Shown here piece by piece: positions 1 through 27,940 of a stretch of 37,860 nucleotides of DNA. The stretch comes from Heptranchias perlo (Eukaryota): the NCBI RefSeq assembly GCF_035084215.1, contig NW_027138693.1, forward strand, positions 1 through 37,860, given 5' to 3'. The translations under genes were made by a program, and so were the position numbers. Numbering within the stretch: position 1 is the first letter of the stretch; every line of letters begins with the position of its first letter. The notes below the pieces were generated by a model that saw nothing but the letters and a program-made list of their open reading frames with translations, was not told the DNA's origin and did no database searches.

Positions 1-3000
1 TGGGGGGAGTGAGAGTCGGTGAGTGAGGGGGGGAGTGAGAGTCGGTGAGTGAGTGGGGGCACTGAACGTCGGTGAGTGAGGGTGGAGTGGGGAGTCGGTG
101 AGTGAGGGGGGGTAGTGAGAGTCGGTGAGTGAGGGGGGACTGAGAGTCGGTGAGTGAGGGGGGGGAGTGAGAGTCGGTGAGTGAGGCGGGGAGTGAGAGT
201 CGGTGAGTGAGGGGGGAGTGAGAGTCGGTGAGTGAGGGGGGAGTGAGAGTCGGTGAGTGAGGGGGGAGTGAGAGTCTGTGAGTGAGGGGGGACTGAGAGT
301 CTGTGAGTGAGGGGGGGATTTAGAGTCGGTGAGTCAGGAGGGGGCTGAGAGTCGGTGAGTGGGGGGGGAGTGAGAGTCGTTGAGAGAGGGGGGGGAGTGA
401 GAGTCGGTGAGTGAGGGGGGGAGTGAGAGTCGGTGAGTGACGGGGGACTGAGAGTCGGTGAGTGTGGGGGGAATGAGAGTCGGTGAGTGAGGGGGGGACT
501 GAGAGTCGGTGAGTGAGGGGGGAGTGAGAGTCGGTGATTGAGGCGGGGGAGTGAGAGTCGGTGAGTGAGGGGGGAGTGAGAGTCGGTGAGTGAGGGGGGA
601 GTGAGAGTAGGTGAGTGAGGCGGGGAGTGAGAGTCGGTGAGTGAGGGGGGAGTGAGAGTCGGTGAGTGAGGGGGGAGTGAGAGTCGGTGAGTGAGGGGGG
701 AGTGAGAGTCGGTGAGTGAGAGGGGAGTGAGAGTCGGTGAGTGAGGGGGGAGTGAGAGTCGGTGAGTGAGGGGGGAGTGAGAGTCGGTGAGTGAGGGGGG
801 AGTGAGAGTCGGTGAGTGAGGGGGGAGTAAGAGTCGGTGAGTGAGGGGGGGAGTGAGAGTCGGTGAGTGTGGGGGGGAGTGAGAGTCGGTGAGTGAGGGG
901 GGGAGTGAGAGTCGGTGAGTGAGGGGGGGAGTGAGAGTCGGTATGTGAGGGGGGGAGTGAGAGTCGGTGAGTGAGGCGGAGAGTGAGAGTCGGTGAGTGT
1001 GGGGGGAGTGAGAGTCGGTGAGTGAGGTGGGAGTGAGAGTCGGTGAGTGAGGCGGAAAGTGAGAGTCGGTGAGTGTGGGGGGAGTGAGAGTCGGTGAGTG
1101 AGGGGGGGGGAGTGAGAGTCGGTGAGTGTGGGGGGGGAGTGAGAGTCGGTGAGTGAGGGGGGGAGTGAGAGTCGGTGAGTGAGGGGGGGAGTGAGAGTCG
1201 GTGAGTGATGGGGGGAGTGAGAGTCGGTGAGTGAGGGGGGAGTGAGAGTCGGTGAGTGAGGGGGGGGAATGAGAGTTGGTGAGTGTGGGGGGGGAGTGAG
1301 AGTCGGTGAGTGAGGGGGGGAGTGAGAGTCGGTGAGTGAGGGGGGAGTGAGAGTCGGTGAGTGAGGGGGGGATTTAGAGTCGGTGAGTGACGAGGGGGCT
1401 GAGAGTCGGTGAGTGAGGGGGGAGTGAGAGTCGTTGAGTGAGGGGGGAGTGAGAGTCGGTGAGTGAGGGGGGGAGTGAGAGTCGGTGAGTGAGGGGGGGC
1501 ACTGAGAGTCGGTGAGTGAGGGGGGGAGTGAGAGTCGGTGAGTGAGGGGGGGAGTGAGAGTCGGTGAGTGAGGGGGGACTGAGAGTCTGTGAGTGAGGGG
1601 GGAGTGAGAGTCGGTGAGTGAGGGGGGGAGTGAGAGTCGGTGAGTGAGGGGGGAGTGAGAGTCGGTGAGTGAGGGGGGAGTGAGAGTCGGTGAGTGAGGG
1701 GGGAGTGAGAGTCGGTGAGTGAGGGGGGAATGAGAGTTGGTGAGTGTGGGGGGGAGTGAGAGTCGGTGAGTGAGGGGGGAGTGAGAGTCGGTGAGTGAGG
1801 GGGGAGTGAGAGTTGGTGAGTGAGGCGGAGAGTGAGAGTCGGTGAGTGAGGGGGGGGAGTGAGAGTCGGTGAGTGTGGGGGGGAGTGAGAGTCGGTGAGT
1901 GAGGGGGGGAGTGAGAGTCGGTGAGTGAGGGAGGGAGTGAGAGTCGGTGAGTGAGGGGGGGAGTGAGAGTCGGTGAGTGAGGGGGGGAGTGAGAGTCGGT
2001 TAGTGAGGGGGGCACTGAGAGTCGGTGAGTGAGGGGGGGAGTGAGAGTCGGTGAGTGAGGGGGGGAGTGAGAGTCGGTGAGTGAGGGGGGGTGTGAGAAG
2101 GGGAGTGAGAGTCGGTGAGTGAGGGGGGGTGTGAGAGTCGGTGAGTGAGGGGGGGACTGAAAGTCTGTGAGTGAGGAAGGGGCTGAGAGTCGGTGAGTGA
2201 GGGGGGGACTGAGAGTCGGTGAGTGAGGGGGGGGAGTGAGAGTCGTGGAGTGAGGGGGGGTGTGAGAGTCGGTGAGTGAGGGGGGAGTGAGAGTCGGTGA
2301 GTGAGGGGGGGAGTGAGAGTCGGTGAGTGAGGGGGGGGAGTGAGTGTCGGTGAGTGAGGGGGAGAGTGAGAGTCGGTGATGTGGGGGGAGTGAGAGTCGG
2401 TGATTGAGGGTGGAGTGAGAGTCTGTGAGTGAGGGGGGACTGAGAGTCTGTGAGTGAGGGGGGGTGTGAGAGTCGATGAGTGAGGGGGGATTGAGAGTCG
2501 GTGAGTGAGGAGGGGGCTGAGAGTCGGTGAGTGAGGGGGGAGTGAGAGTCGGTGAGTGAGGGGGGGAGTGAGAGTCGGTGAGTGACGGGGGGGCACTGAG
2601 AGTCGGTGAGTGAGGGGGGGGGGAGTGAGAGTCGGTGAGTGAGGGGGGGAGAGAGAGTCGGTGAGTGAGAGGGGGGGAGTGAGAGTCGATGAGTGAGGGG
2701 GGGAGTGAGAGTCGGTGAGTGAGGGGGGGAGTGAGAGTCGGTGAGCGAGGGGGGGAGTGAGAGTCTGTGAGTGAGGGGGGTGTGAGAGTCGGGAAGTCAG
2801 GGGGTAGTGAGAGTCGGTGAGTGAGGGGGGTAGTGAGAGTCGGTGAGTGAGGGGGGGATTGAGAGTCGGTGAGTGAGGGGGGGAGTGAGAGTCGGTGAGT
2901 GAGGGGGGGGAGTGAGAGTCGGTGAGTGAGGGGGGGACTGAGAGTCGGTGAGTGAGGGGGGAGTGAGAGTCGGTGAGTGAGGGGGGGACTGAGAGTCGGT

Positions 3001-6000
3001 GAGTGAGGGGGGAGTGAGAGTCGTTGAGTGAGGGGGGGAGTGAGAGTCGTTGAGTGAGGGGGGACTGAGAGTCTGTGAGTGAGGGGGGGACTGAGAGTCG
3101 GTGAATGAGGGGGGAGTGAGAGTCGGTGAGTGAGGGGGGAGTGAGAGTCTGTGAGTGAGGGGGGACTGAGAGTCTGTGAGTGAGGGGGGGACTGAGAGTC
3201 GGTGAATGAGGGGGGAGTGAGAGTCGGTGAGTGAGGGGGGGAGTGAGAGTCAGTGAGTGAGGGGGGGCACTGAACGTCGGTGAGTGAGGGTGGAGTGGGA
3301 GTCGGTGAGTGAGGGGGGGAGTGAGAGTCGGTGAGTGAGGGGGGGAGTGAGTGTCGGTGAGTGAGGGGGGTAGTGAGAGTCGGTGAGTGAGGGGGGGAGT
3401 GAGAGTCGGTGAGTGAGGGGGGAGTGAGAGTCGGTGAGTGAGGGGGGGGGACTGAGAGTCGGTGAGTGAGGGGGGGAGTGAGAGTCGGTGAGTGAGGGGG
3501 GAGTGAGAGTCTGTGAGTGAGGGGGGACTGAGAGTCTGTGAGTGAGGGGGGGTGTGAGAGTCGGTGAGTGAGGGGGGGATTTAGAGTCGGTGAGTGAGGA
3601 GGGGGCTGAGAGTCGGTGAGTGGGGGGGAGTGAGAGTCGTTGAGTGAGGGGGGAGTGAGAGTCGGTGAGTGAGGGGGGGAATGAGAGTCGGTGAGTGAGG
3701 GGGGAGTGAGAGTCGGTGAGTGAGGGGGGAGTGAGAGTCGGTGAGTGTGGGGGGGAGTGAGAGTCGGTGAGTGAGGGGGGGAGTGAGAGTCGGTGAGTGT
3801 GAGGGGGGAGTAAGAGTCGGTGAGTGTGGGGGGAGTGAGAGTCGGTGAGTGAGGGGGGGAGTGAGAGTCGGTGAGTGTGTGGGGAGTGAGAGTCGGTGAG
3901 TGAGGGGGAAGTGAGAGTCGGTGAGTGAGGGGGGGGAGTGAGACTCGGTGAGTGAGGGGGGGGGAGTGAGAGTCGGTGAGTGTGGGGGGAGTGAGAGTCG
4001 GTGAGTGAGGGGGGAGTGAGAGTCTGTGAGTGAGGGGGGACTGAGAGTCTGTGAGTGAGGGGGGGGTGTGAGAGTCGGTGAGTGAGGGGGGATTTAGAGT
4101 CGGTGAGTGACGAGGGGGCTGAGAGTCGGTGAGTGAGGGGGGAGTGAGAGTCGTTGAGTGAGGGGGGAGTGAGAGTCGGTGAGTGAGGGGGGGAGTGAGA
4201 GTCGGTGAGTGAGGGGGGGTGTGAGAAGGGGAGTGAGAGTCGGTGAGTGAGGGGGGGTGTGAGAGTCGGTGAGTGAGGGGGGAGTGAGAGTAGGTGAGTG
4301 AGGCGGGGAGTGAGAGTCTGTGAGTGAGGGGGGACTGAGAGTCTGTGAGTGAGGGGGGGTGTGAGAGTCGGTGAGTGAGGGGGGGATTTAGAGTCGGTGA
4401 GTGAGGAGGGGGCTGAGAGTCGGTGAGTGAGGGGGGAGTGAGAGTCGTTGAGTGAGGGGGGAGTGAGAGTCGGTGAGTGAGGCGGGGAGTGAGAGTCGGT
4501 GAGTGAGGGGGGGAGTGAGAGTCGGTGAGTGAGGGGGGAGACTGAGAGTCGGTGAGTGAGGGGGGGAGTGAGAGTCGGTGAATGAGGGGGGAGTGAGAGT
4601 CGGTGAGTGAGGGGGGGAGTGAGAGTCGGTGAGTGAGGGGGGGAGTGAGAGTCGGTGAGTGAGGGGGGGAGTGAGAGTCGGTGAGTGAGGGGGGGGAGTG
4701 AGAGTCGGTGAGTGAGGGGGGGAGTGAGATTCGGTGAGTGAGGGGGGAGTGAGAGTCTGTGAGTGTGGGGGGGACTGAGAGTCGGTGAGTGAGGGGGGAG
4801 TGAGAGTCGGTGAGTGAGGGGGGAGTGAGAGTCGGTGAGTGAGGGGGGGAGTGAGAGTCGGTGAGTGAGTGGGGGCACTGAACGTCGGTGAGTGAGGGTG
4901 GAGTGGGAGTCGGTGAGTGAGGGGGGGGTAGTGAGAGTCGGTGAGTGAGGGGGGACTGAGAGTCGGTGAGTGAGGGGGGGAGTGAGAGTCGGTGAGTGAG
5001 GCGGGGAGTGAGAGTCGGTGAGTGAGGGGGGAGTGAGAGTCGGTGAGTGAGGGGGGGAGTGAGAGTCGGTGAGTGAGGGGGGAGTGAGAGTCTGTGAGTG
5101 AGGGGGGACTGAGAGTCTGTGAGTGAGGGGGGGATTTAGAGTCGGTGAGTCAGGAGGGGGCTGAGAGTCGGTGAGTGGGGGGGGAGTGAGAGTCGTTGAG
5201 AGAGGGGGGGAGTGAGAGTCGGTGAGTGAGGGGGGGAGTGAGAGTCGGTGAGTGACGGGGGGAGTGAGAGTCGGTGAGTGAGGGGCGGTGTGAGAGTCGG
5301 TGAGTGAGGGGGGACTGAGAGTCGGTGAGTGTGGGGGGAATGAGAGTCGGTGAGTGAGGGGGGGACTGAGAGTCGGTGAGTGAGGGGGGAGTGAGAGTCG
5401 GTGATTGAGGCGGGGAGTGAGAGTCGGTGAGTGAGGGGGGAGTGAGAGTCGGTGAGTGAGGGGGGAGTGAGAGTAGGTGAGTGAGGCGGGGAGTGAGAGT
5501 CGGTGAGTGAGGGGGGAGTGAGAGTCGGTGAGTGAGGGGGGAGTGAGAGTCGGTGAGTGAGGGGGGAGTGAGAGTCGGTGAGTGAGAGGGGAGTGAGAGT
5601 CGGTGAGTGAGGGGGGAGTGAGAGTCGGTGAGTGAGGGGGGAGTGAGAGTCGGTGAGTGAGGGGGGAGTGAGAGTCGGTGAGTGAGGGGGGAGTAAGAGT
5701 CGGTGAGTGAGGGGGGGAGTGAGAGTCGGTGAGTGTGGGGGGGAGTGAGAGTCGGTGAGTGAGGGGGGGAGTGAGAGTCGGTGAGTGAGGGGGGGAGTGA
5801 GAGTCGGTATGTGAGGGGGGGGAGTGAGAGTCGGTGAGTGAGGCGGAGAGTGAGAGTCGGTGAGTGTGGGGGGAGTGAGAGTCGGTGAGTGAGGTGGGAG
5901 TGAGAGTCGGTGAGTGAGGCGGAAAGTGAGAGTCGGTGAGTGTGGGGGGAGTGAGAGTCGGTGAGTGAGGGGGGGGAGTGAGAGTCGGTGAGTGAGGGGG

Positions 6001-9000
6001 GGGAGTGAGAGTCGGTGAGTGTGGGGGGGAGTGAGAGTCGGTGAGTGAGGGGGGGAGTGAGAGTCGGTGAGTGAGGGGGGGAGTGAGAGTCGGTGAGTGA
6101 TGGGGGGAGTGAGAGTCGGTGAGTGAGGGGGGAGTGAGAGTCGGTGAGTGAGGGGGGGAATGAGAGTTGGTGAGTGTGGGGGGGAGTGAGAGTCGGTGAG
6201 TGAGGGGGGGAGTGAGAGTCGGTGAGTGAGGGGGGAGTGAGAGTCGGTGAGTGAGGGGGGGATTTAGAGTCGGTGAGTGACGAGGGGGCTGAGAGTCGGT
6301 GAGTGAGGGGGGAGTGAGAGTCGTTGAGTGAGGGGGGAGTGAGAGTCGGTGAGTGAGGGGGGGAGTGAGAGTCGGTGAGTGAGGGGGGGCACTGAGAGTC
6401 GGTGAGTGAGGGGGGGGAGTGAGAGTCGGTGAGTGAGGGGGGGAGTGAGAGTCGGTGAGTGAGGGGGGGACTGAGAGTCTGTGAGTGAGGGGGGAGTGAG
6501 AGTCGGTGAGTGAGGGGGGGAGTGAGAGTCGGTGAGTGAGGGGGGAGTGAGAGTCGGTGAGTGAGGGGGGAGTGAGAGTCGGTGAGTGAGGGGGGAGTGA
6601 GAGTCGGTGAGTGAGGGGGGAATGAGAGTTGGTGAGTGTGGGGGGGAGTGAGAGTCGGTGAGTGAGGGGGGAGTGAGAGTCGGTGAGTGAGGGGGGAGTG
6701 AGAGTTGGTGAGTGAGGCGGAGAGTGAGAGTCGGTGAGTGAGGGGGGGGAGTGAGAGTCGGTGAGTGTGGGGGGGAGTGAGAGTCGGTGAGTGAGGGGGG
6801 GAGTGAGAGTCGGTGAGTGAGGGAGGGAGTGAGAGTCGGTGAGTGAGGGGGGAGTGAGAGTCGGTGAGTGAGGGGGGGAGTGAGAGTCGGTTAGTGAGGG
6901 GGGCACTGAGAGTCGGTGAGTGAGGGGGGGAGTGAGAGTCGGTGAGTGAGGGGGGGAGTGAGAGTCGGTGAGTGAGGGGGGGTGTGAGAAGGGGAGTGAG
7001 AGTCGGTGAGTGAGGGGGGGTGTGAGAGTCGGTGAGTGAGGGGGGGGACTGAAAGTCTGTGAGTGAGGAAGGGGCTGAGAGTCGGTGAGTGAGGGGGGGG
7101 ACTGAGAGTCGGTGAGTGAGGGGGGGAGTGAGAGTCGGTGAGTGAGGGGGGAGTGAGAGTCGGTGAGTGAGGGGGGGAGTGAGAGTCGGTGAGTGAGGGG
7201 GGGAGTGAGTGTCGGTGAGTGAGGGGGAGAGTGAGAGTCGGTGATGTGGGGGGAGTGAGAGTCGGTGATTGAGGGTGGAGTGAGAGTCTGTGAGTGAGGG
7301 GGGACTGAGAGTCTGTGAGTGAGGGGGGGTGTGAGAGTCGATGAGTGAGGGGGGATTGAGAGTCGGTGAGTGAGGAGGGGGCTGAGAGTCGGTGAGTGAG
7401 GGGGGAGTGAGAGTCGGTGAGTGAGGGGGGGAGTGAGAGTCGGTGAGTGACGGGGGGGCACTGAGAGTCGGTGAGTGAGGGGGGGGGAGTGAGAGTCGGT
7501 GAGTGAGGGGGGGAGAGAGAGTCGGTGAGTGAGAGGGGGGGAGTGAGAGTCGATGAGTGAGGGGGGGAGTGAGAGTCGGTGAGTGAGGGGGGGAGTGAGA
7601 GTCGGTGAGTGAGGGGGGGATTGAGAGTCGGTGAGTGAGGGGGGGAGTGAGAGTCGGTGAGTGAGGGGGGGAGTGAGAGTCGGTGAGTGAGGGGGGGACT
7701 GAGAGTCGGTGAGTGAGGGGGGAGTGAGAGTCGGTGAGTGAGGGGGGGACTGAGAGTCGGTGAGTGAGGGGGGAGTGAGAGTCGTTGAGTGAGGGGGGGA
7801 GTGAGAGTCGTTGAGTGAGGGGGGACTGAGAGTCTGTGAGTGAGGGGGGGACTGAGAGTCGGTGAATGAGGGGGGAGTGAGAGTCGGTGAGTGAGGGGGG
7901 AGTGAGAGTCTGTGAGTGAGGGGGGACTGAGAGTCTGTGAGTGAGGGGGGGACTGAGAGTCGGTGAATGAGGGGGGAGTGAGAGTCGGTGAGTGAGGGGG
8001 GGAGTGAGAGTCAGTGAGTGAGGGGGGGCACTGAACGTCGGTGAGTGAGGGTGGAGTGGGAGTCGGTGAGTGAGGGGGGGGAGTGAGAGTCGGTGAGTGA
8101 GGGGGGGAGTGAGTGTCGGTGAGTGAGGGGGGTAGTGAGAGTCGGTGAGTGAGGGGGGGAGTGAGAGTCGGTGAGTGAGGGGGGAGTGAGAGTCGGTGAG
8201 TGAGGGGGGGGACTGAGAGTCGGTGAGTGAGGGGGGGGAGTGAGAGTCGGTGAGTGAGGGGGGGAGTGAGAGTCTGTGAGTGAGGGGGGACTGAGAGTCT
8301 GTGAGTGAGGGGGGGTGTGAGAGTCGGTGAGTGAGGGGGGGATTTTGAGTCGGTGAGTGAGGAGGGGGCTGAGAGTCGGTGAGTGGGGGGGAGTGAGAGT
8401 CGTTGAGTGAGGGGGGAGTGAGAGTCGGTGAGTGAGGGGGGGAATGAGAGTCGGTGAGTGAGGGGGGAGTGAGAGTCGGTGAGTGAGGGGGGAGTGAGAG
8501 TCGGTGAGTGTGGGGGGGAGTGAGAGTCGGTGAGTGAGGGGGGAGTGAGAGTCGGTGAGTGAGGGGGGGAGTAAGAGTCGGTGAGTGTGGGGGGAGTGAG
8601 AGTCGGTGAGTGAGGGGGGGAGTGAGAGTCGGTGAGTGTGTGGGGAGTGAGAGTCGGTGAGTGAGGGGGAAGTGAGAGTCGGTGAGTGAGGGGGGGGAGT
8701 GAGACTCGGTGAGTGAGGGGGGGGAGTGAGAGTCGGTGAGTGTGGGGGGGAGTGAGAGTCGGTGAGTGAGGGGGGAGTGAGAGTCTGTGAGTGAGGGGGG
8801 ACTGAGAGTCTGTGAGTGAGGGGGGGTGTGAGAGTCGGTGAGTGAGGGGGGGATTTAGAGTCGGTGAGTGACGAGGGGGCTGAGAGTCGGTGAGTGAGGG
8901 GGGAGTGAGAGTCGTTGAGTGAGGGGGGAGTGAGAGTCGGTGAGTGAGGGGGGGAGTGAGAGTCGGTGAGTGAGGGGGGGTGTGAGAAGGGGAGTGAGAG

Positions 9001-12000
9001 TCGGTGAGTGAGGGGGGGTGTGAGAGTCGGTGAGTGAGGGGGGAGTGAGAGTAGGTGAGTGAGGCGGGGAGTGAGAGTCTGTGAGTGAGGGGGGACTGAG
9101 AGTCTGTGAGTGAGGGGGGGTGTGAGAGTCGGTGAGTGAGGGGGGGATTTAGAGTCGGTGAGTGAGGAGGGGGCTGAGAGTCGGTGAGTGAGGGGGGAGT
9201 GAGAGTCGTTGAGTGAGGGGGGGAGTGAGAGTCGGTGAGTGAGGCGGGGAGTGAGAGTCGGTGAGTGAGGGGGGAGTGAGAGTCGGTGAGTGAGGGGGGA
9301 GTGAGAGTAGGTGAGTGAGGCGGGGAGTGAGAGTCGGTGAGTGAGGGGGGAGTGAGAGTCGGTGAGTGAGGGGGGAGTGAGAGTCGGTGAGTGAGGGGGG
9401 AGTGAGAGTCGGTGAGTGAGGGGGGAGTGAGAGTCGTGGAGTGAGGGTGGGACTGAGAGTCTGTGAGTGAGGGGGGGAGCGAGAGTCGGTGAATGAGGGG
9501 GGGAGTGAGAGTCGGTGAGTGAGGGGGGGCGTGAGAGTCGGTGAGTGAGGGGGGGAGTGAGAGTCGGTGAGTGAGGGGGGGAGAGAGAGTCGGTGAGTGA
9601 GGGGGGGAGAGAGAGTCGGTGAGTGAGGGGGGAGTGAGAGTCGGTGAGTGGGGGGGGAGTGAGAGTCGGTGAGTGAGGGGGGGAGTGAGAGTCGTGGAGT
9701 GAGGGGGGGAGTGAGAGTCGCGGAGTGAGGGGGGGGACTGAGAGTCTGTGAGTGAGGGGGGGGAGCGAGAGTCGGTGAATGAGGGGGGAGTGAGAGTCGG
9801 TGAGTGAGGGGGGGCGTGAGAGTCGGTGAGTGAGGGGGGGAGTGAGAGTCGATGAGTGAGGGGGGGAGTGAGATTCGGTGAGTGAGGGGGGAGTGAGAGT
9901 CTGTGAGTGAGGGGGGGACTGAGAGTCGGTGAATGAGGGGGGAGTGAGAGTCGGTGAGTGAGGGGGGAGTGAGAGTCGGTGAGTGAGGGGGGGGCACTGA
10001 ACGTCGGTGAGTGAGGGTGGAGTGGGAGTCGGTGAGTGAGGGGGGTAGTGAGAGTCGGTGAGTGAGGGGGGGAGTGAGAGTCGGTGAGTGAGGGGGGAGT
10101 GAGAGTCGGTGAGTGAGGGGGGAGTGAGAGTCGGTGAGTGAGGGGGGAGTGAGAGTCTGTGAGTGAGGGGGGACTGAGAGTCTGTGAGTGAGGCGGGGAT
10201 TTAGAGTCGGTGAGTCAGGAGGGGGCTGAGAGTCGGTGAGTGGGGGGGGAGTGAGAGTCGTTGAGTGAGGGGGGGAGTGAGAGTCGGTGAGTGAGGGGGG
10301 GAGTGAGAGTCGGTGAGTGAGGGGGGACTGAGAGTCGGTGAGTGAGGGGGGGACTGAGAGTCGGTGAGTGAGGGGGGAGTGAGAGTCGGTGAGGGAGGGG
10401 GGAGTGAGAGTCGGTGAGTGAGGGGGGAGTGAGAGTCGGTGAGTGAGGGGGGGAGTGAGAGTCGGTGAGTGAGGGGGGGAGTGAGAGTCGGTGAGTGAGG
10501 CGGTGAGTGTGGGGGGAGTGAGAGTCGGTGAGTGAGGGGGGGGAGTGAGAGTCGGTGAGTGAGGGGGGGAGTGAGAGTCGGTGAGTGTGGGGGGGAGTGA
10601 GAGTCGGTGAGTGAGGGGGGGAGTGAGAGTCGGTGAGTGAGGGGGAGAGTGAGAGTCGGTGACTGTGGGGGGAGTGAGAGTCGGTGAGTGAGGGGGGGAG
10701 CGAGAGTCGGTGAGTGAGGGGGGGAGTGAGAGTCGGTGAGTGAGGGGGAGAGTGAGAGTCGGTGACTGTGGGGGGAGTGAGAGTCGGTGAGTGAGGGGGG
10801 GAGTGAGAGTCGGTGAGTGAGGGGGGGAGTGAGAGTCGGTGAGTGTGGGGGGAGTGAGAGTCGGTGAGTGAGGGGGGGAGTGAGAGTCTGTGAGTGAGGG
10901 GGAACTGAGAGCCTGTGAGTGAGGGGGGGGGAGTGAGAGTCGGTGAGTGAGGGGGGGGTGTGAGAGTCGGTGAGTGAGGGGGGGATTTAGAGTCGGTGAG
11001 TGAGGAGGGGGCTGAGAGTCGGTGAGTGATGGGGGAATGAGAGTCGTTGAGTGAGTGGGGAGTGAGAGTCGGTGAGTGAGGGGGGGCACTGAGAGTCGGT
11101 GAGTGAGGGGGGGAGTGAGAGACGGTGAGTGAGGGGGTGTTTGAGAGGGGGAGTGAGAGTCGGTGAGTGAGGGGGGGAGTGAGAGTCGGTGAGTGAGGGG
11201 GGAGTGAGAGTCGGTGAGTGAGGGGGGAGTGAGAGTCGGTGAGTGAGGGGGGGAGTGAGAGTCGGTGAGTTCGGGGGGGATTGAGAGTCGGTGAGTGAGG
11301 GGGGAGTGAGAGTCGGTGAGTGAGGGGGGAGTGAGAGTCGGTGAGTGAGGGGGGAGTGAGAGTCGGTGAGTGAGGGCGGGACTGAGAGTCGGTGAGTGAG
11401 GGGGGGACTGAAAGTCTGTGAGTGAGGAGGGGGCTGAGAGTCGGTGAGTGAGGGGGGGAGTGAGAGTCGGTGAGTGTGGGGGGAGTGAGAGTCGGTGAGT
11501 GTGGGGGGAGTGAGAGTCGGTGAGTGAGGGGGGGAGTGAGAGTCGGTGAGTGAGGGGGGGAGTGAGAGTCGGTGTGTGAGGGGGAGAGTGAGAGTCGGTG
11601 AGTGAGGGCGGGCACTGAACGTCGGTGAGTGAGGGGGGGAGTGAGAGTCGGTGAGTGAGGGGGGGAGTGAGAGTCGGTGAGTGAGGGGGGGAGTGAGAGT
11701 CGGTGAGTGAGGGCGGGCACTGAACGTCGGTGAGTGAGGGGGGGGAGTGAGAGTCGGTGAGTGAGGGGGGGAGTGAGAGTCGGTGAGTGAGGCGGGGAGT
11801 GAGAGTCGGTGTGTGAGGGGGGGAGTGAGAGTCGGTGAGTGAGGGGGTACTGAGAGTCTGTGAGTGAGGGGGGTTTGAGAGTCGGTGAGTGAGGGGGGGC
11901 ACTGAGAGTCGGTGAGTGAGGGGGGGAGTGAGAGTCGGTGAGTGAGGAGGGGGCTGAGAGTCGGTGAGTGGGGGGGGAGTGAGAGTCGTTGAGTGAGGGG

Positions 12001-15000
12001 GGAGTGAGGGGGGGAGTGAGAGTCGGTGAGTGAGGGGGGGGCACTGAGAGTCGGTGAGTGAGGGGGGGGAGTGAGAGTCGGTGAGTGAGTGGGGGAGTGA
12101 GAGTCGGTGAGTGAGGGGGGGAGTGAGAGTCGGTGAGTGAGGGGGAGAGTGAGAGTCGGTGAGTGTGGGGGGAGTGAGAGTCGGTGAGTGAGGGGGGGAG
12201 TGAGAGTCGGTGAGTGAGGCGGGGAGTGAGAGTCGGTGTGTGAGGGGGGAGTGAGAGTCGGTGAGTGAGGGGGGAGTGAGAGTCGGTGAGTGAGGGGGTA
12301 CTGAGAGTCTGTGAGTGAGGGGGGTTTGAGAGTCGGTGAGTGAGGGGGGGTGTGAGAGTCGGTGAGTGAGGCGGAGATTTAGAGTCGGTGAGTGAGGAGG
12401 GGGCTGAGAGTCGGTGAGTGAGGGGGGAGTGAGGGGGGGAGTGAGAGTCGGTGAGTGAGGGGGGGGCACTGATGGTCGGTGAGTGAGGGGGGGGAGTGAG
12501 AGTCGTTGAGTGAGGGGGGAGTGAGGGGGGGAGTGAGAGTCGGTGAGTGAGGGGGGGGCACTGATGGTCGGTGAGTGAGGGGGGGGAGTGAGAGTCGGTG
12601 AGTGAGTGGGGGAGTGAGAGTCGGTGAGGGAGGGGGGAGTGAGAGTCGGTGAGTGAGGGGGGAGTGAGAGTCGGTGAGTGAGGGGGGGAGTGAGAGTCGG
12701 TGAGTGAGGGGGGGAGTGAGAGTCGGTGAGTGAGGCGGTGAGTGTGGGGGGAGTGAGAGTCGGTGAGTGAGGGGGGGGAGTGAGAGTCGGTGAGTGAGGG
12801 GGGGAGTGAGAGTCGGTGAGTGTGGGGGGGAGTGAGAGTCGGTGAGTGAGGGGGGGAGTGAGAGTCGGTGAGTGAGGGGGAGAGTGAGAGTCGGTGACTG
12901 TGGGGGGAGTGAGAGTCGGTGAGTGAGGGGGGGAGCGAGAGTCGGTGAGTGAGGGGGGGAGTGAGAGTCGGTGAGTGAGGGGGGGAGTGAGAGTCGGTGA
13001 GTGAGGGGGGGAGTGAGAGTCGGTGATTGAGGTGGGGCACTGAACGTCGGTGAGTGAGGGGGGAGTGGGACTCGGTGAGTGAGGGGGGGAGTGAGAGTCG
13101 GTGAGTGTGGGGGGAGTGAGAGTCTGTGAGTGAGGGGGGACTGAGAGCCTGTGAGTGAGGGGGGGGGAGTGAGAGTCGGTGAGTGAGGGGGGGATTTAGA
13201 GTCGGTGAGTGAGGAGGGGGCTGAGAGTCGGTGAGTGATGGGGGAATGAGAGTCGTTGAGTGAGTGGGGAGTGAGAGTCGGTGAGTGAGGGGGGGAGTGA
13301 GAGTCGGTGAGTGAGGGGGGGCACTGAGAGTCGGTGAGTGAGGGGGGGAGTGAGAGTCGGTGAGTGAGGGGGTGTGTGAGAGGGGGAGTGAGAGTCGGTG
13401 AGTGAGGGGGGGAGTGAGAGTCGGTGAGTGAGGGGGGAGTGAGAGTCGGTGAGTGAGGGGGGAGTGAGAGTCGGTGAGTGAGGGGGGGAGTGAGAGTCGG
13501 TGAGTTAGGGGGGGATTGAGAGTCGGTGAGTGAGGGGGGAGTGAGAGTCGGTGAGTGAGGGGGGAGTGAGAGTCGGTGAGTGAGGGGGGAGTGAGAGTCG
13601 GTGAGTGAGGGCGGGACTGAGAGTCGGTGAGTGAGGGGGGGAGTGAGAGTCGGTGAGTGAGGGGGGGAGTGAGAGTCGGTGAGTGAGGGCGGGCACTGAA
13701 CGTCGGTGAGTGAGGGGGGGGAGTGAGAGTCGGTGAGTGAGGGGGGGAGTGAGAGTCGGTGAGTGAGGGGGGGAGTGAGAGTCGGTGAGTGAGGGCGGGC
13801 ACTGAACGTCGGTGAGTGAGGGGGGGGAGTGAGAGTCGGTGAGTGAGGGGGGGAGTGAGAGTCGGTGAGTGAGGTGTGGAGTGAGAGTCGGTGTGTGAGG
13901 GGGGGAGTGAGAGTCGGTGAGTGAGGGGGGAGTGAGAGTCGGTGCGTGAGGGGGTACTGAGAGTCTGTGAGTGAGGGGGGTTTGAGAGTCGGTGAGTGAG
14001 GGGGGGCACTGAGAGTCGGTGAGTGAGGGGGGGAGTGAGAGTCGGTGAGTGAGGGGGGGAGTGAGAGTCGGTGAGTGAGTGGGGGAGTGAGAGTCGGTGA
14101 GTGAGGGGGGGAGTGAGAGTCGGTGAGTGAGGGGGAGAGTGAGAGTCGGTGAGTGTGGGGGGAGTGAGAATCGGTGAGTGAGGGGGGGAGTGAGAGTCGG
14201 TGAGTGAGGCGGGGAGTGAGAGTCGGTGTGTGAGGGGGGAGTGAGAGTCGGTGAGTGAGGGGGGAGTGAGAGTCGGTGAGTGAGGGGGTACTGAGAGTCT
14301 GTGAGTGAGGGGGGTTTGAGAGTCGGTGAGTGAGGGGGGGTGTGAGAGTCGGTGAGTGAGGGGGGAGTGAGAGTCGTTGAGTGAGGGGGGAGTGAGGGGG
14401 GGAGTGAGAGTCGGTGAGTGAGGGGGGGGCACTGATGGTCGGTGAGTGAGGGGGGGGAGTGAGAGTCGGTGAGTGAGTGGGGGAGTGAGAGTCGGTGAGT
14501 GAGGGGGGGAGTGAGAGTCGGTGAGTGAGGGGGGGAGTGAGAGTCGGTGAGTGAGTGGGGGAGTGAGAGTCGGTGAGTGAGGGGGAGAGTGAGAGTCGGT
14601 GAGTGTGGGGGGAGTGAGAGTCGGTGAGTGAGGGGGGGGAGTGAGAGTCGGTGAGTGAGGGGGAGATTGAGAGTCGGTGAGTGTGGGGGGAGTGAGAGTC
14701 GGTGAGTGAGGTGGGGACTGAGAGTCGGTGAGTGAGGGGGGAGTGAGAGTCGGTGAGTGAGGGGGGGTGTGAGAGTCGGTGATTGAGGGGGGGCACTGAA
14801 CGTCGGTGAGTGAGGGGGGAGTGGGAGTCGGTGAGTGAGGGGGGGGTAGTGAGAGTCGGTGAGTGAGGGGGGGAGTGAGAGTCGGTGAGTGAGGGGGGGA
14901 GTGGGAGTCGGTGAGTGAGGGGGGAGTGAGAGTCGATGAGTGAGGGGGGAGTGAGAGTCTGTGAGTGAGGGGGGACTGAGAGTCTGTGAGTGAGGGGGGG

Positions 15001-17853
15001 AGTGAGAGTCGGTGAGTGAGGGGGGAGTGAGAGTCGGTGAGTGAGGGGGGGATTTAGAGTCGGTGAGTGAGGAGGGGGCTGAGAGTCGGTGAGTGAGGGG
15101 GGGAGTGAGAGTCGGTGAGTGAGGGGGGGAGTGAGAGTCGGTGAGTGAGGGGGGAGTGAGAGTCGGTGAGTGAGGGGGGGTGTGAGAGGGGGAGTGAGAG
15201 TCGGTGAGTGAGGGGGGGTGTGAGAGTCGGTGAGTGAGGGGGGGATTGAGAGTCGGTGAGTGAGGGGGGAGTGAGAGTCGGTGAGTGAGGGGGGAGTGAG
15301 AGTCGGTTAGTGAGGGGGGGACTGAAAGTCTGTGAGTGAGGGGGGGAGTGAGAGTCGTGGAGTGAGGGGCGGTGAGTGAGGGGGGGACTGAGAGTCGGTG
15401 AGTGAGGGGGGGAGTGAGAGTCGTGGAGTGAGGGGCGGTGTGAGAGTCGGTGAGTGTGGGGGGAGTGAGAGTCGGTGAGTGTGGGGGGACTGAGAGTCGG
15501 TGAGTGAGGGGGAGTGAGAGTCGGTGAGTGAGGGGGGAGTGAGAGTCGGTGAGTGAGGGGGGGACTGAGAGTCGGTGAGTGAGGGGGGGACTGAGAGTCG
15601 GTGAGTGAGGGGGGAGTGAGAGTCGGTGAGTGAGGGGCGGAGTGAGAGTCGGTGAGTGAGGGGGGACTGAGAGTCGGTGAGTGAGGGGGGGACTGAGAGT
15701 CGGTGAGTGAGGGGGGAGTGAGAGTCGGTGAGTGAGGGGGGACTGAGAGTCGGTGAGTGAGGGGGGGAGTGAGAGTCGGTGAGTGAGGGGGGACTGAGAG
15801 TCGGTGAGTGAGGGGGGACTGAGAGTCGGTGAGTGAGGGGGGGAGTGAGAGTCGGTGAGTGAGGAGGGGGCTGAGAGTCGGTCAGTGAGGGGGGGAGTGA
15901 GAGTCGTGGAGTGAGGGGGGGTGTTAGAGTCGGTGAGTGAGGGGGGGGATTGAGAGTCGGTGAGTGAGGGGGGGAGTGAGAGTCGGTGAGTGAGGGTGGG
16001 AGTGATAGTCGAGGAGTGAGGGGGGACTGAGAGTCGGTGAGTGAGGGGGGGGGAGGGAGAGTCGGTGAGTGAGGGGGGGAGTGAGAGTCGAGGAGTGAGG
16101 GGGGACTGAGAGTCGGTGAGTGAGGGGGGGACTGAGAGTCGGTGAGTGAGGGGGGGAGTGAGAGTCGAGGAGTGAGGGGGGAGTGAGAGTCTGTGAGTGA
16201 GGGGGGACTGAGATTCTGTGAGTGAGGGGGGAGTGAGAGTCGGTGAGTGAGGGGGGAGTGAGAGTCGGTGAGTGAGGGGGGGATTGAGAGTCGGTGAGTG
16301 TGGGGGGACTGAGAGTCGGTGAGTGAGGGGGGAGTGAGAGTCGGTGAGTGTGGGGGGACTGAGAGTCGGTGAGTGAGGGGGGAGTGAGAGTCGGTGAGTG
16401 AGGGGGGGATTGAGAGTCGGTGAGTGTGGGGGGACTGAGAGTCGGTGAGTGAGGGGGGAGTGAGAGTCGGTGAGTGAGGAGGGGGCTGAGAGTCGGTGAG
16501 TGAGGGAGGGAGTGAGAGTCGTGGAGTGAGGGGGGGTGTGAGAGTCGGTGAGTGAGGGGGGAGTGAGAGTCGGTGAGTGTGGGGGGACTGAGAGTCGGTG
16601 AGTGAGGGGGGGAGTGAGAGTCGGTGAGTGAGGGGGGGGACTGAGAGTCGGTGAGTGAGGAGGGGGCTGAGAGTTGGTGAGTGAGGGGGGGAGTGAGAGT
16701 CGTGGAGTGAGGGGGGGTGTGAGAGTCGGTGAGTGAGGGGGGGAGTGAGAGTCGAGGAGTGAGGGGGGGTGTGAGAGTCGGTGAGTGAGGGGGGGACTGA
16801 GAGTCGGTGAGTGAGGGGGGGAGTGAGAGTCGAGGAGTGAGGGGGGGTCTGAGAGTCGATGAGTGAGGGGGGGAGTGAGAGTCGGTGAGTGAGGGGGGGA
16901 CTGAGAGTCGGTGAGTGAGGGGGGACTGAGAGTCGGTGAGTGAGGGGGGGAGTGAGAGTCGGTGAGTGAGGGTGGGACTGAGAGTCGGTGAGTGAGGGGG
17001 GGAGTGAGAGTCGGTGAGTGTGGGGGGGAGTGAGAGTCGGTGAGTGAGGGGGGAGTGAGAGTCGGTGAGTGAGGGGGGGAGTGAGAGTCGGTGAGTGAGG
17101 GGGGGAGTGAGAGTCGTTGAGTGTGGGGGGGAGTGAGAGTCGGTGAGTGAGGGGGGGAGTGAGAGTCGGTGAGTGAGGGGGGAGTGAGAGTCGGTGAGTG
17201 AGGGGGGGAGTGAGAGTCGGTGAGTGTGGGGGGGAGTGAGAGTCGGTGAGTGAGGGGGAGAGTGAGAGTCGGTGAGTGAGGGGAGGAGTGAGAGACGGTG
17301 AGTGAGGGGGGGACTGAGAGTCGGTGAGTGAGGGGGGAGTGAGAGACGGTGAGTGAGGGGGGGACTGAGAGTCGGTGAGTGAGGGGGGGACTGAGAGTCG
17401 GTGAGTGAGGGGGGGAGTGAGAGTCGGTGAGTGTGGGGGGAGTGAGAGTCGGTGAGTGAGGGGGGACTGAGAGTCGGTGAGTGAGGGAGGGACTGAGAGT
17501 CGGTGATTGTGGGGGGGAGTGAGAGTCGGTGAGTGAGGGGGAGAGTGAGAGTCGGTGAGTGAGGGGAGGAGTGAGAGACGGTGAGTGAGGGGGGGACTGA
17601 GAGTCGGTGAGTGAGGGGGGAGTGAGAGACGGTGAGTGAGGGGGGGACTGAGAGTCGGTGAGTGAGGGGGGGACTGAGAGTCGGTGAGTGAGGGGGAGAG
17701 TGAGAGTCGGTGAGTGAGGGGGGTACTGAGAGTCGGTGAGTGAGGGGGGGAGTGAGAGTCGGTGAGTGAGGGGGGTACTGAGAGTCGGTGAGTGAGGGGG
17801 GAGTGACAGTCGGTGAGTGAGGGGGGAGTGAGAGTCTGTGAGTGAGGGGGGGA
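1..17853. repeat. Giant G-rich tandem satellite, unit AGTGAGAGTCGGTGAGTGA(G)6-9 (25-28 bp), roughly 680-700 copies, running off the left edge of the window
   Basis: The unit can be read continuously from base 1 to about 17853. Recurrent variants include ACTGAGAG, ATTTAGAG, GCACTGAACGTC, GTCTGTG and GTCGTTG. Copy number is estimated as length divided by about 26. Confidence 0.99.
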
Positions 17854-18430
17854 CTGGGGTCTGATCCCCAATTTAAAGGGGTTTGTCCCGTTCCCTGGGG
17901 TCTAATCCCCAGTTTAAAGGGGTTTGTCCCGTTCCCTGGGGTCTAATCCCCAGTTTAAAGGGGTTTGTCTCGTTCCCTGGGGTCTAATCCCCAGTTTAAA
18001 GGGGTTTGTCCCGTTCCCTGGGGTCTAATCCCCAGTTTAAAGGGGTTTGTCCCGTTCCCTGGGGTCTAATCCCCAGTTTAAAGGGGTTTGTCCCGTTCCC
18101 TGGGGTCTAATCCCCAGTTTAAAGGGGTTTGTCCCGTTCCCTGGGGTCTAATCCCCAGTTTAAAGGGGTTTGTCCCGTTCCCTGGGGTCTAATCCCCAGT
18201 TTAAAGGGGTTTGTCCCGTTCCCTGGGGTCTAATCCCCAGTTTAAAGGGGTTTGTCCCGTTCCCTGGGGTCTAATCCCCAGTTTAAAGGGGTTTGTCCCG
18301 TTCCCTGGGGTCTAATCCCCAGTTTAAAGGGGTTTGTCCCGTTCCCTGGGGTCTAATCCCCAGTTTAAAGGGGTTTGTACCGTTCCCTGGGGTCTAATCC
18401 CCAGTTTAAAGGGGTTTGTCCCGTTCCCTG
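17854..18430. repeat. 41-bp minisatellite, 14 copies: CTGGGGTCTAATCCCCAGTTTAAAGGGGTTTGTCCCGTTCC
   Basis: Period of 41 checked (GTTTGTCCCG at 17881 and 17922). Copies are nearly identical with no spacers. Internal inverted repeat CTGGGG-tctaat-CCCCAG. Confidence 0.98.
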
Positions 18431-18468
18431 TCTCACACTGACTCGGCTCTGATCTGTTTTACTCTCAG

Positions 18469-18744
18469 TTACTCCCCAAGTGTTTCTTTCTGTGGACAAG
18501 GCCTCAGACACTAAACCGGCCCAACTCTCCTGCCTGGTCACGGGGTTTTACCCTCGAGATATCGAACTCACCCTCCTGAGAAATGGACGGCCGATCTCAG
18601 ACACTGATTCCACTGGCATCCTGCCCAACCACGATGGCACCTACCAGATCAAGAGATGGGTTGAGATCGGGCCCGAGGACGGAGCCACCTACTCCTGTCA
18701 GGTGGATCACAGCAGCAAAGCAGGAGTGGAGACCCGAGACTGGG
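18469..18744 (+). CDS. MHC class I heavy chain, alpha3 (Ig C1-set) domain exon; 276 bp, phase 1-1
   Basis: Acceptor ctgttttactctcAG (18467-68), donor G|GTAAGA (18745). Translation (V)TPQVFLS...LSCLVTGFYPRDIELTLLRNG...ILPNHDGTYQIKRWV...TYSCQVDHSS...RDW contains the C-x-x-x-GFYP, PNxDGTYQ and YxCxVxH class I alpha3 motifs. The length equals the 276-bp HLA exon 4. Confidence 0.96.
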
Positions 18745-18809: not shown

Positions 18810-19509
18810 CTCCTCATTCTTCCTTCCAAAATACATCACTTCACACTTCTCTGTGTTAAATTTCATCTGCCATGTGTCTGCCCATTTCACCAGTCTGTCT
18901 GTGTCCTCCTGAACTCTGTTACTATCCTCCACATTGTTTACTACATTTCCGAGTTTCGTGTCAGCTGCAAACTTTGAAATTATACCCTCTATACCCAAGT
19001 CCAGGTCATTAATATCTCTCAAAAAGAGCAGTGGTCCTAATACTGAGCCCTGGGGAACCCCACTGTAAACTTTCCTCCAGTCTGAGAAACAACCGTTCAC
19101 CACTACTCTCTGCTTTCTGTCCCTGAGCCAATTTACCACTGTCCCTTTAATCCCATGGCTTTAATTTTACTGACAAGTCTATTATGTGGCACTTTATCAA
19201 ATGCCTTTTGAAAGTCCATATACACAACATCCACCTCACTGCCCTCATCAACCCTCTCTGTTACTTCATCAAAGAACTCAATCAAGTTGGTCAAACACGA
19301 TTTGCCTTTAACAAATCTGTGCTGACTTTCTTTTATTAACCCAGACTTTTCCAAGTGACAATTAATTTTGTCCCAGATTATTGTCTTAAAGTTTCCCCTC
19401 CACTGACGTTAGACTGACTGGCCTGGATTTCCCGGGTTTATCCCTCTCCCCTTTTTTGAAAAGTGTGTAACATTTACAATCCTCCAGTCCTCTGGCACCG
19501 TCCCCATAT
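18810..19509 (-). mobile_element. CR1-clade LINE ORF2 reverse transcriptase fragment, frameshifted
   Basis: ORFs 19133-19354 (QH.FVKGKSCLTNLIEFF...VDVVYMDFQKAFDKVPH) and 18801-19139 ([13 protein letters not shown]...ISKFAADTKLG...WQMKFNTEKCEVM) carry CR1 RT motifs. The catalytic ADD is degraded to AAD. Confidence 0.93.
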
Positions 19510-20411
19510 CCGTTCTCTCCCCTCTCTCTCTTTACTCCCAGTGCTCCGTTCCCTCCCTCTCTCTCTTTACTCCCAGTGCTCCGTTCCCTCCCTCTCTCTC
19601 TTTACTCCCAGTGCTCCGTTCCCTCCCTCTCTCTCTTTACTCCCAGTGCTCCGTTCCCTCCCTCTTTCTCTTTACTCCCAGTGCTCCGTTCCCTCCCTCT
19701 CTCTCTTTACTCCCAGTGCTCCGTTCCCTCCCTCTCTCTCTTTACTCCCAGTGCTCCGTTCCCTCCCTCTCTCTCTTTACTCCCAGTGCTCCGTTCCCTC
19801 CCTCTCTCTCTTTACTCCCAGTGCTCCGTTCCCTCCCTCTCTCTCTTTACTCCCAGTGCTCCGTTCCCTCCCTCCCTCTCTCGACTCCCAGTGCTCCGTT
19901 CCCTCCCTCTCTCTCTTTACTCCCAGTGCTCCGTTCCCTCCCTCTCTCTCTTTACTCCCAGTGCTCCGTTCCCTCCCTCCCTCTCTCGACTCCCAGTGCT
20001 CCGTTCCCTCCCTCTCTCTCTTTACTCCCAGTGCTCCGTTCCCTCCCTCTCTCTCTTTACTCCCAGTGCTCCGTTCCCCCCCTCTCTCTCTTTACTCCCA
20101 GTGCTCCGTTCCCTCCCTCTCTCTCTTTACTCCCAGTGCTCCGTTCCCTCCCTCTCTCTCTTTACTTCCAGTGCTCCGTTCCCTCCCTCTTTCTCTTTAC
20201 TCCCAGTGCTCCGTTCCCTCCCTCTCTCTCTTTGCTCCCAGTGCTCCGTTCTCTCCCTCTTTCTCTTTACTCCCAGTGCTCCGTTCCCTCCCTCTCTCTC
20301 TTTACTCCCAGTGCTCCGTTCCCTCCCTCTTTCTCTTTACTCCCAGTGCTCCGTTCCCTCCCTCTTTCTCTTTACTCCCAGTGCTCCGTTCCCTCCCTCT
20401 TTCTCTTTTAC
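19510..20411. repeat. 35-bp pyrimidine-rich minisatellite, about 25-26 copies: CCGTTCCCTCCCTCTCTCTCTTTACTCCCAGTGCT
   Basis: Directly visible tandem repeat with two 39-bp variant units (TCTCGACTCC). It explains the three overlapping repetitive plus-strand ORFs. Confidence 0.97.
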
Positions 20412-23564: not shown

Positions 23565-23690
23565 ATGGGACGTTCCGAGTGACTCCGGGATCTTCAGAGG
23601 GACCGAATCTGGGTTTAATTGTTGGAATTGTTCTTGCTGCCGTCGCCCTGATTGCTCTCGTCATTGGTGCCGTTGTCTGGAAGAAGAGAG
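23565..23690 (+). CDS. MHC class I connecting peptide plus transmembrane exon; 126 bp, phase 1-1
   Basis: Long polypyrimidine tract then cAG (23563-64), donor G|GTAGGA (23691). Spliced to alpha3 it reads W-D-GTFRVTPGSSEGPNLGLIVGIVLAAVALIALVIGAVVW-KKR: a roughly 24-aa hydrophobic helix followed by a basic stop-transfer motif. Confidence 0.94.
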
Positions 23691-24492: not shown

Positions 24493-24528
24493 GAGGAGAG
24501 AAAAAATCTGGTTACAGCCCAGCAAATC
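24493..24528 (+). CDS. MHC class I cytoplasmic exon 1 (36 bp): (G)GEKKSGYSPAN
   Basis: Acceptor ttctgtctcttgtAG (24491-92), strong donor C|GTAAGT (24529). Phase 1-1, in frame with the TM exon. GYSPA matches the conserved class I Y-x-x-A motif (HLA SYSQA). Confidence 0.9.
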
Positions 24529-25335: not shown

Positions 25336-25382
25336 CTGCTGAAAGAGGAGAATCGTCCTCGAACTCATCAGCCCGAGCCTGA
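25336..25382 (+). CDS. MHC class I cytoplasmic exon 2 with stop: (P)AERGESSSNSSARA*
   Basis: Acceptor cttttcttttcacAG (25334-35), in frame after the 36-bp exon. Ser-rich tail, TGA at 25380-25382, then G|GTACGA donor at 25384. That gives a 48-bp exon, the same length as HLA exon 7. Confidence 0.88.
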
Positions 25383-25598
25383 GGTACGAAGTCAATCACT
25401 TGAGTTTAACAGCAGCTGAACGAGCAGCAAACCAGGTTGTGAAGAGCAGCAACTGTGGGCTCAGGGGGTCGGGAGGGAGCTGCTTATATCTGACTGGACT
25501 GAGTCTCCTCACTGGAACGCTGCTTTTTCACTTAACGTTTGTAGAGATTTCTCACTGAGTGAAACCCTGATTCCATAACACAGTCTGTAAAAGACAGA

Positions 25599-27618: not shown

Positions 27619-27940
27619 GCTGATCCTGAGTGAAGTTGATTGGATCCAGAATCTGGATGTTCGGTGTCGCTGGGAGGATTGATTGAGAAACGATCGGGGA
27701 TTGTTAATCGCAATTAGTTTTGATTGATTGTCACTGGCTGCTCTCGCTGTTTTTTGACTGTATTCTGTAATGTTTCCATCATTGAGATGATTTTTGGCTT
27801 TTTTTCTTGGTGATTTGATCGAAATCTCCAGTTGTGTGTTTTGCCATTGAATGTTAAATGAGATGTTTTTAATTGCAGTCGTTGCCTGTGTTCCTGTCGA
27901 TGGGAAATGTTCATTAAACTGATTCAGGGAGAGGTCAGCG
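27619..27940 (+). other. Probable non-coding last (3'UTR) exon of the class I gene
   Basis: Acceptor tctgtctctgttccattccccAG (27617-18), followed by U/GU-rich sequence with ATTAAA at 27913-27918 (alternative AATAAA at 28244-28249). Would pair with the donor at 25384. Confidence 0.5.

Follow-up and report, generated by a model that had tools for sequence, protein, structure and literature searches.

A minisatellite of repeated 5′ splice sites in the alpha2–alpha3 intron of shark MHC class I genes is probably a tolerated expansion of the exon–intron junction

A class I gene family of the shark Heptranchias perlo carries, in the intron between its alpha2 and alpha3 exons, a tandem array of 5′ splice sites that reaches about 700 units. 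Comparison of the gene copies, together with RNA contigs, indicates that the array is a locus-specific minisatellite that copies the alpha2 exon–intron junction, and that it has probably been tolerated as a mostly neutral expansion, without a regulatory role. The DNA on which the analysis is centered, referred to as the window, is the entire 37,860-nucleotide contig C526 of the assembly (G000:C526). Its 5′ end falls inside the donor array and, because the window is the whole contig, no upstream sequence can be read from it.

Results

The donor array and the downstream exons of the window

The donor minisatellite, with a unit of 25/26 bp, occupies positions 1–17853 of the plus strand and runs off the 5′ end of the contig; tandem-repeat detection called it at 4–17853 with a period of 26 (25/26) and 693 copies. 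The earlier note had described about 690 consensus donors, each followed by a G-run. The array on the sense strand is real, but the figure of 690 is that of the units: exact G|GTGAGT was found 557 times on the plus strand and 0 times on the minus strand, as compared with a mean of 61 and a maximum of 82 in 100 runs of a first-order Markov control, which is a weak control for a tandem repeat. The statement on the G-runs was overstated as well, as GTGAGTGA is followed directly by six or more G at 396 sites of the window. The GT dinucleotide is retained in 630 of 686 parsed units. Maximal exact matches, determined after compression of the G-runs, uncovered a higher-order block duplication on the plus strand at 93–9301, with an offset of about 4.8 kb (93–4540 recurs at 4908–9301), and a second one with an offset of 2.2 kb near 10372/12608.

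The donor array is separated from the acceptor by a 41-bp minisatellite of 14 copies, also identified by tandem-repeat detection (17854–18430, plus strand), which is found in the window-type paralogs and is missing from the gene on contig C1438. Thirteen of its units have a branch-point-like word followed by CAG, just 5′ of the real acceptor, and no joint to a unit of this repeat was present among the joints listed in the RNA contigs (see below). The intron ends in unique sequence with a pyrimidine tract and the AG acceptor of alpha3 (18431–18468, plus strand), the homolog of which was joined in the RNA contigs. The class I alpha3 exon lies downstream on the same strand as the array, as had been claimed. 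It spans 18469–18744, is open and of phase 1, was recognized by the Pfam C1-set domain and by matches to MHC class I structures, and differs by 0–1 nt from the 10 other copies in the assembly.

The following intron contains a 35-bp minisatellite of acceptor-like units, called by tandem-repeat detection (19509–20408, plus strand). In 21 units a pyrimidine tract and CAG resemble the real alpha3 acceptor, making the repeat a decoy acceptor array in its own right, which the copies b–g on contig C1050 do not have. The exon for the connecting peptide and transmembrane (TM) segment, assigned by its open frame and AG/GT ends, is at 23565–23690, and the alpha3–TM join is seen as loose ends of RNA contigs. 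From the sequence, a first cytoplasmic exon is predicted at 24493–24528 and a second, which includes the stop codon, at 25336–25383; the alpha3, transmembrane and two cytoplasmic exons share a single open frame. The last, untranslated exon is probably at 27619–28249, with polyadenylation hexamers at 27913 and 28244. All of these exons are on the plus strand.

The array begins at the true alpha2 donor in every complete paralog

The assembly contains 11 near-identical copies of the window alpha3 and 11 alpha2 exons of the family, ten of which are paired with a window-type alpha3 and one (C1438) with a different alpha3. Each alpha2 exon already has its own alpha3, and the window carries the sole alpha3 that is without an alpha2; the 5′ end of the window gene's array and its alpha1 and alpha2 exons are absent from both the window and the rest of the assembly. 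Comparison of the 11 complete paralogs placed the start of the array at the true alpha2 donor in all of them; this donor reads CCG|GTGAGTGA followed by a G-run and is itself unit 1. Each later unit repeats the final ~11 nt of alpha2, in slightly altered form, together with the ~15 nt that open the intron. The location of the array in the alpha2–alpha3 intron, conjectured in the earlier note, is thus borne out by its position in the complete paralogs, and the guess that the array is an amplified donor region was right, given that unit 1 is the true alpha2 donor in all of them.

The unit is confined to this family. A 21-nt unit core has 1040 exact matches in the genome and a 41-nt two-unit word has 159, and every one of them falls inside these 12 introns. 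The candidate explanation of a genome-wide satellite in random orientation, which had been named as grounds for discarding the proposal, was thereby ruled out with respect to exact matches, the only kind searched for and one that diverged copies elsewhere would escape.

Nine genes have arrays of 9–50 units; those of C1654, C1438 and the window have 696, about 480 and at least 686 units, respectively, a distribution of 9 to ~700 units over 12 copies from one assembly, in which alleles and paralogs are not separable. All 12 copies, with either alpha3 type, keep the array at the donor; selection could be the reason, and this counts against pure neutrality. The closest copy to the window is C1654, with flanks that are 99.4% identical over 1.1 kb, 98.9% over 6.2 kb and 99.2% over 5.6 kb, yet the two arrays have no common match above 129 compressed letters; the combination of 99% identical flanks with arrays lacking a long common match points to fast array turnover. 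The C1654 array has its own block duplications of 1.6–3.5 kb. Judged by their sequences, the long arrays of the window, C1654 and C1438 grew separately. In C1654, a 1.2-kb insertion with a T-rich end (about 43300–44500) interrupts the first unit of the 41-bp repeat, immediately 3′ of the donor array; it is likely the 3′ end of an antisense retrotransposon, and the window does not have it.

Large repeats are not peculiar to the donor array. Tandem repeats constitute 47% of the 400 kb of C1050 examined, and the 38-kb and 10.5-kb CT-rich expansions on that contig, which are not made of donors, form the 3′ part of two paralogs. Giant arrays are therefore normal in this region. The giant CT/GA-rich satellites in or behind class I genes are at C1050:162834–200966 (38 kb) and 328025–338531 (10.5 kb), and another, of about 95 kb, is at C1438 about 41000–138858.

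The first donor is used in RNA

The RNA evidence consists of contigs from one sample of a single study, sequenced in four runs; that they are RNA was guessed, and spliced joints were seen in them. The C1161 copy (alpha2, 25 units, alpha3) served as the reference. Donor 1 was joined to the alpha3 acceptor, with GT..AG ends, in four of four runs (7, 7, 2 and 7 contigs; 23 in all), the shorter side of the joints being 24–29 letters, below the 31 asked for a firm bridge. All six joints listed start no more than 3 nt from donor 1, and none of the joints listed in the four runs uses an internal donor of the 25-unit C1161 array, with the qualification that contigs lose rare forms and that the arrays of the sampled animal may be of other lengths. 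The loose ends of the contigs include the alpha1–alpha2 and alpha3–TM joins, as well as the second alpha3 type. As the alpha3 exon is identical in nine copies, no joint can be assigned to the window's own gene.

RNA contigs that show no difference from the C1654 alpha2 allele, which precedes an 18-kb array in the assembly, end at donor 1. One of these identical contigs covers the base near the donor that is private to that allele, and the loose ends read the start of alpha3. Contig cover of the start of the C1654 array was near-absent, which is not evidence by itself. In run X3, a 131-nt contig is three letters off the C1654 alpha2 and matches none of the 11 assembled alpha2 exons; it could be from another allele or from the missing exon of the window gene.

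A record of splicing is also preserved in an old retrocopy of a window-type class I gene on C20 (about 51547650–51548070, minus strand), in which the end of alpha2, alpha3 and TM are joined without introns, at about 80% identity (79% to the window alpha3), and in which alpha2 is joined at the native donor. At the family level, in the contigs of this one sample and in the retrocopy, the first donor is the one that is used.

Decoy donors equal the true donor in U1 pairing and their GT mutates freely

Donor strength was scored by U1 duplex energy. The supposition that the decoys would be good partners for U1 held up: the predicted energy is −10.2 kcal/mol for the true donor and for the common decoy, 40 decoys pair better (−11.3), and the gene's other four donors are at −5.7 to −9.3. 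With the true donor and the decoys equal in U1 energy, it must be position and not strength that decides which is chosen. The alpha2 exon is 273 nt long to donor 1, and about 298 and 324 nt with donors 2 and 3. Exon definition favors exons below a certain size, and later donors would thus push the alpha2 exon past the favored size. Reading through donor 1 encounters Gly-Glu-stop in 11 of 11 genes. Any later donor therefore gives a premature stop several junctions before the last one, and the product is a predicted substrate of decay, which would make the array cheap to carry. Steady-state RNA would, for the same reason, be compatible with some leakage.

We found no preservation of the donor motif over neighboring bases in the window units; GT mutates as freely. 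Positions +1 and +2 are changed in 6.1% and 4.1% of the window units versus 1–9% at other positions, a weak comparison since the units are not independent. We considered whether the decoys closest to the true donor are selectively lost, as units 2 and 3 of C1654 and one unit each of C1050a and C1050g are affected, and rejected this, as the loss is not enriched over 11 genes: of the two closest decoys in each gene, 16 of 22 are intact, as against 1080 of 1381 decoys further on, a count in which the first decoy is mis-registered in C1050a and C1050g (one kept its GT with a weakened −1 position, the other lost its GT).

Relation to shark class Ia and a mosaic gene on C1438

The best PDB match of the C1654 alpha1 and alpha2 is, by a wide margin, 6LUP (E values of 6e-34 and 2e-34), which we take to be the nurse shark UAA, a classical class I molecule, although its database name says no more than 'MHC class I protein'. 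For the window-type alpha3, 6LUP (74.5 bits) and 9CH4 (78.3 bits) are matches of similar distance, and this alpha3 is not of the 6LUP type, to which the C1438 alpha3 belongs (96.5 bits). Peptide ends are anchored by residues Y7, Y59, R84, T143, K146, W147, Y159 and Y171 of alpha1/alpha2. These residues are present in C1654, the closest copy to the window, whose own alpha1/alpha2 is not assembled. TAP-like exons were found at C1057:40674–43207 and C1161:87524–87727, on contigs that each carry one window-type gene (9 and 25 units). Near C526, C1654 and C1438, no TAP or PSMB was assignable, the 60 of 168 open frames scanned having given hits to reverse transcriptase and Myb/SANT only. Additional 'MHC-Ia-like' genes in the neighborhood of the shark Ia gene have been mentioned as unpublished (PMC10751288), in a paper whose main text does not contain the word 'intron'. 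The elasmobranch MHC-Ia and 'MHC-Ia-like' genes, as far as that main text describes them, resemble the present family in being several copies, here with TAP-like exons on C1057 and C1161.

The gene at C1438:419–15842 combines a 6LUP-type alpha3 with an alpha1/alpha2 that is near-identical at silent sites to those of the window-type genes. The two alpha3 types are 65% identical in nucleotide sequence, yet alpha1/alpha2 of C1438 differ from those of C1057, C1654 and C1050a at 0–1 fourfold-degenerate sites, and C1438 matches C1057 at 93% over 2 kb, intron included. On the 3′ side of the array, alignment is limited to the alpha3 core and interspersed repeats. The share of C1438 array 30-mers in common with other arrays is 0.50 in the first kb and 0–0.20 beyond, and the shared alpha1/alpha2 stretch, as judged from these alignments, ends inside the donor array. 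Because the C20 retrocopy makes the window-type combination an old one, the most economical interpretation would be that two old alpha3 backbones recently exchanged alpha1–alpha2, with the exchanged tract ending within the array.

C1050 (44528–382707) carries seven class I copies whose alpha3 exons are nearly identical. The five tandem copies b–f share a diverged alpha1, in whose helix N takes the place of the conserved Tyr that precedes Trp, and the copy at 283037–283303 has an in-frame TGA in alpha2. In copy g (373978–382707), alpha1 is nearest to b–f (25–30 nt, versus 68 to C1057) and alpha2 is closer to C1057 (18 versus 24–28), a pattern for which conversion of the alpha2 exon is a possible explanation.

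Discussion

The interpretation that we favor is that the array arose from the alpha2 exon–intron junction and is probably tolerated. A short duplication of the junction would predate the expansion of the family, and slippage and unequal exchange, some of it duplicating kb-scale blocks, would then have lengthened the arrays of three copies separately. The first donor, being made first and closing a 273-nt exon, would win by position, as expected from 5′-to-3′ scanning of the kind seen in human F7. The G-run behind each donor would add bias toward the upstream site; this step is borrowed from other genes, as F7 needed no intronic element in the available text of the two sources (PMC1557585, PMC1919487). 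Leakage to later donors would result in a truncated alpha1–alpha2 product or, more likely, in nonsense-mediated decay. The array may have a small effect on expression, given that mis-spliced RNA could be degraded.

The nearest precedent is the 37-bp VNTR of human F7 intron 7, with 5–9 units (Borensztajn et al. 2006; PMC1557585). As far as the available text of that paper goes, the two repeats are alike in that unit 1 extends across the exon–intron boundary, donors are repeated in the intron and the most upstream one is used. They are unlike in that the shark array has 9 to ~700 units of strong consensus donors with G-runs, is found in a 12-gene family rather than in one gene, and has every later donor blocked by an immediate stop, whereas the activity of the pseudo-sites was assayed in F7 only. 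The same source describes donor minisatellites in human 6-16 (25 pseudo-sites), CBS intron 13 (15–20), LMNB2 (10–15) and PDGF intron 4 (16–18), with the same anatomy as the shark array, which has ~30-fold more units. First-site use as in F7 is reported there for LMNB2 and PDGFA also. In 6-16 and CBS, however, two pseudo-sites, the nearest ones, are used as well (PMC1557585), which counts against a tolerated array with use of the first donor alone; no such use was seen in the shark RNA contigs, among the joints listed. The array thus takes to an extreme a peculiarity that a handful of human genes also show. For the biology of the gene itself it probably means nothing unusual.

With respect to the G-runs, McCullough and Berget reportedly described, in 1997, G-rich enhancers at competing 5′ splice sites. 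In PLP/DM20, G-rich elements between competing donors favor the upstream one, with hnRNP H/F (PMC1919487). That system, in the text available, concerns a regulated choice between two sites; in the shark array the choice is constitutive among hundreds, and the role of the G-runs would be by analogy. Among teleosts, salmonid and cyprinid class I genes, according to the available text of PMC6523485, share with the shark genes a long intron (intron 2), more than 10 kb between domain exons, and mosaic genes; there, alpha1 and alpha2 are shuffled among alleles, whereas in the shark the long intron is that between alpha2 and alpha3 and is built of donor repeats. An immunoglobulin switch-like region was another candidate, a G-rich non-template strand and a multi-kb tandem repeat being found in the shark array too. 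Switch regions have dense WGCW/AGCT hotspots for AID. This analogy was ruled out, with 0 WGCW in 17,853 nt. In the features tested, the array agrees with donor VNTRs of the F7 type, located at an exon boundary, and does not agree with telescripting elements or switch regions.

One could envision that the array tunes the gene, as the earlier note suggested in proposing length-dependent control: extra decoys would divert a share of the transcripts to the degraded stop form, or slow splicing, so that array length sets the class I dose. Such a tuner has the parts it would need, namely decoys that equal the true donor for U1, with 40 better, and that surpass the gene's other four donors, a stop in every mis-spliced product, and a 70-fold range of array length, and the use of pseudo-sites in human 6-16 and CBS (PMC1557585), as well as the tandem-repeat splicing QTL that are common in humans (PMC10078293), provide partial precedents from the text available. 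Nevertheless, we regard it as improbable. Only the first donor appears in the RNA contigs, no internal-donor joint being among those listed in four runs, and the C1654 allele is present there and ends at donor 1; nine of 12 copies have only 9–50 units, and the donor GT mutates freely. Furthermore, F7 uses its first site alone whatever comes after it, according to the accessible part of PMC1557585. If competition is limited to the few nearest decoys, which are present in all 12 copies, then 700 units would add little over 20. We consider it very improbable that the hundreds of decoys act in trans as a sponge for U1 and hnRNP H, or as a telescripting platform against early polyadenylation. A transcript of the window gene would carry 557 strong donors and about 400 runs of six or more G, but the array does not exceed 50 units in nine of the 12 copies, and the sites on a few nascent transcripts would number no more than about 10^4, compared with some 10^6 U1 particles in a mammalian cell. 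The role suggested for intronic U1 in suppressing premature polyadenylation finds no substrate in the three long introns, where AATAAA and ATTAAA occur 0 times.

An alternative of a different kind is that the G-rich array is an end point of gene conversion or crossover, by which alpha1–alpha2 modules are shared between two old alpha3 backbones. The C1438 mosaic, with its contrast between alpha3 and the fourfold sites of alpha1/alpha2, and the drop in array 30-mer sharing after the first kb are what such a hinge would produce. The window array is also suitably G-rich (GC skew of about 0.84 and a mean G4Hunter score of 1.35, on the non-template strand), and domain shuffling of teleost class I makes use of long introns, in the portion of PMC6523485 available. 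Yet alpha1 groups and downstream intron structure mostly agree among the window-type genes, the window's array has no WGCW hotspot, and the data are from one assembly; because a conversion tract can extend no further than the homology does, the pattern is explained without giving the array a special role, and we think the hinge unlikely. A broader version is doubtful as well, in which the array would be an R-loop- and G4-prone, self-copying hinge for class I domain exchange, and the built-in stop and first-donor rule would permit 700 perfect donors harmlessly. As for an assembly artefact, by which the 18-kb length would be inflated or the contig a redundant copy, the contig does end inside the array, lacks an alpha2 partner and has flanks 99% identical to those of C1654. 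Its internal variant pattern, however, is unlike those of C1654 and C1438, the duplicated blocks are not identical, and arrays of 18.1 and 13.7 kb are spanned exon to exon on two other contigs, which reduces the chance of an artefact to nearly nothing.

We return, then, to a junction minisatellite that is probably tolerated. No paper on a shark class I donor array was found in the literature covered, with most subscription papers and the supplement of PMC10751288 outside its scope. The array has ~30 times more units than the largest human case in the available text of PMC1557585, and it explains the assembly breaks in the class I region. With 9 to ~700 donors of equal strength following one exon in twelve near-identical genes, the family constitutes a natural experiment, in which the choice of a 5′ splice site can be tested for being purely first-come or leaking with the number of decoys. 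The array also marks the mosaic boundary between the shared alpha1–alpha2 and the two alpha3 types, which bears on the undescribed shark 'MHC-Ia-like' genes. If the doubtful notion of a hinge were true, the array would keep one pool of peptide-binding alpha1–alpha2 modules common to two ancient alpha3 backbones.
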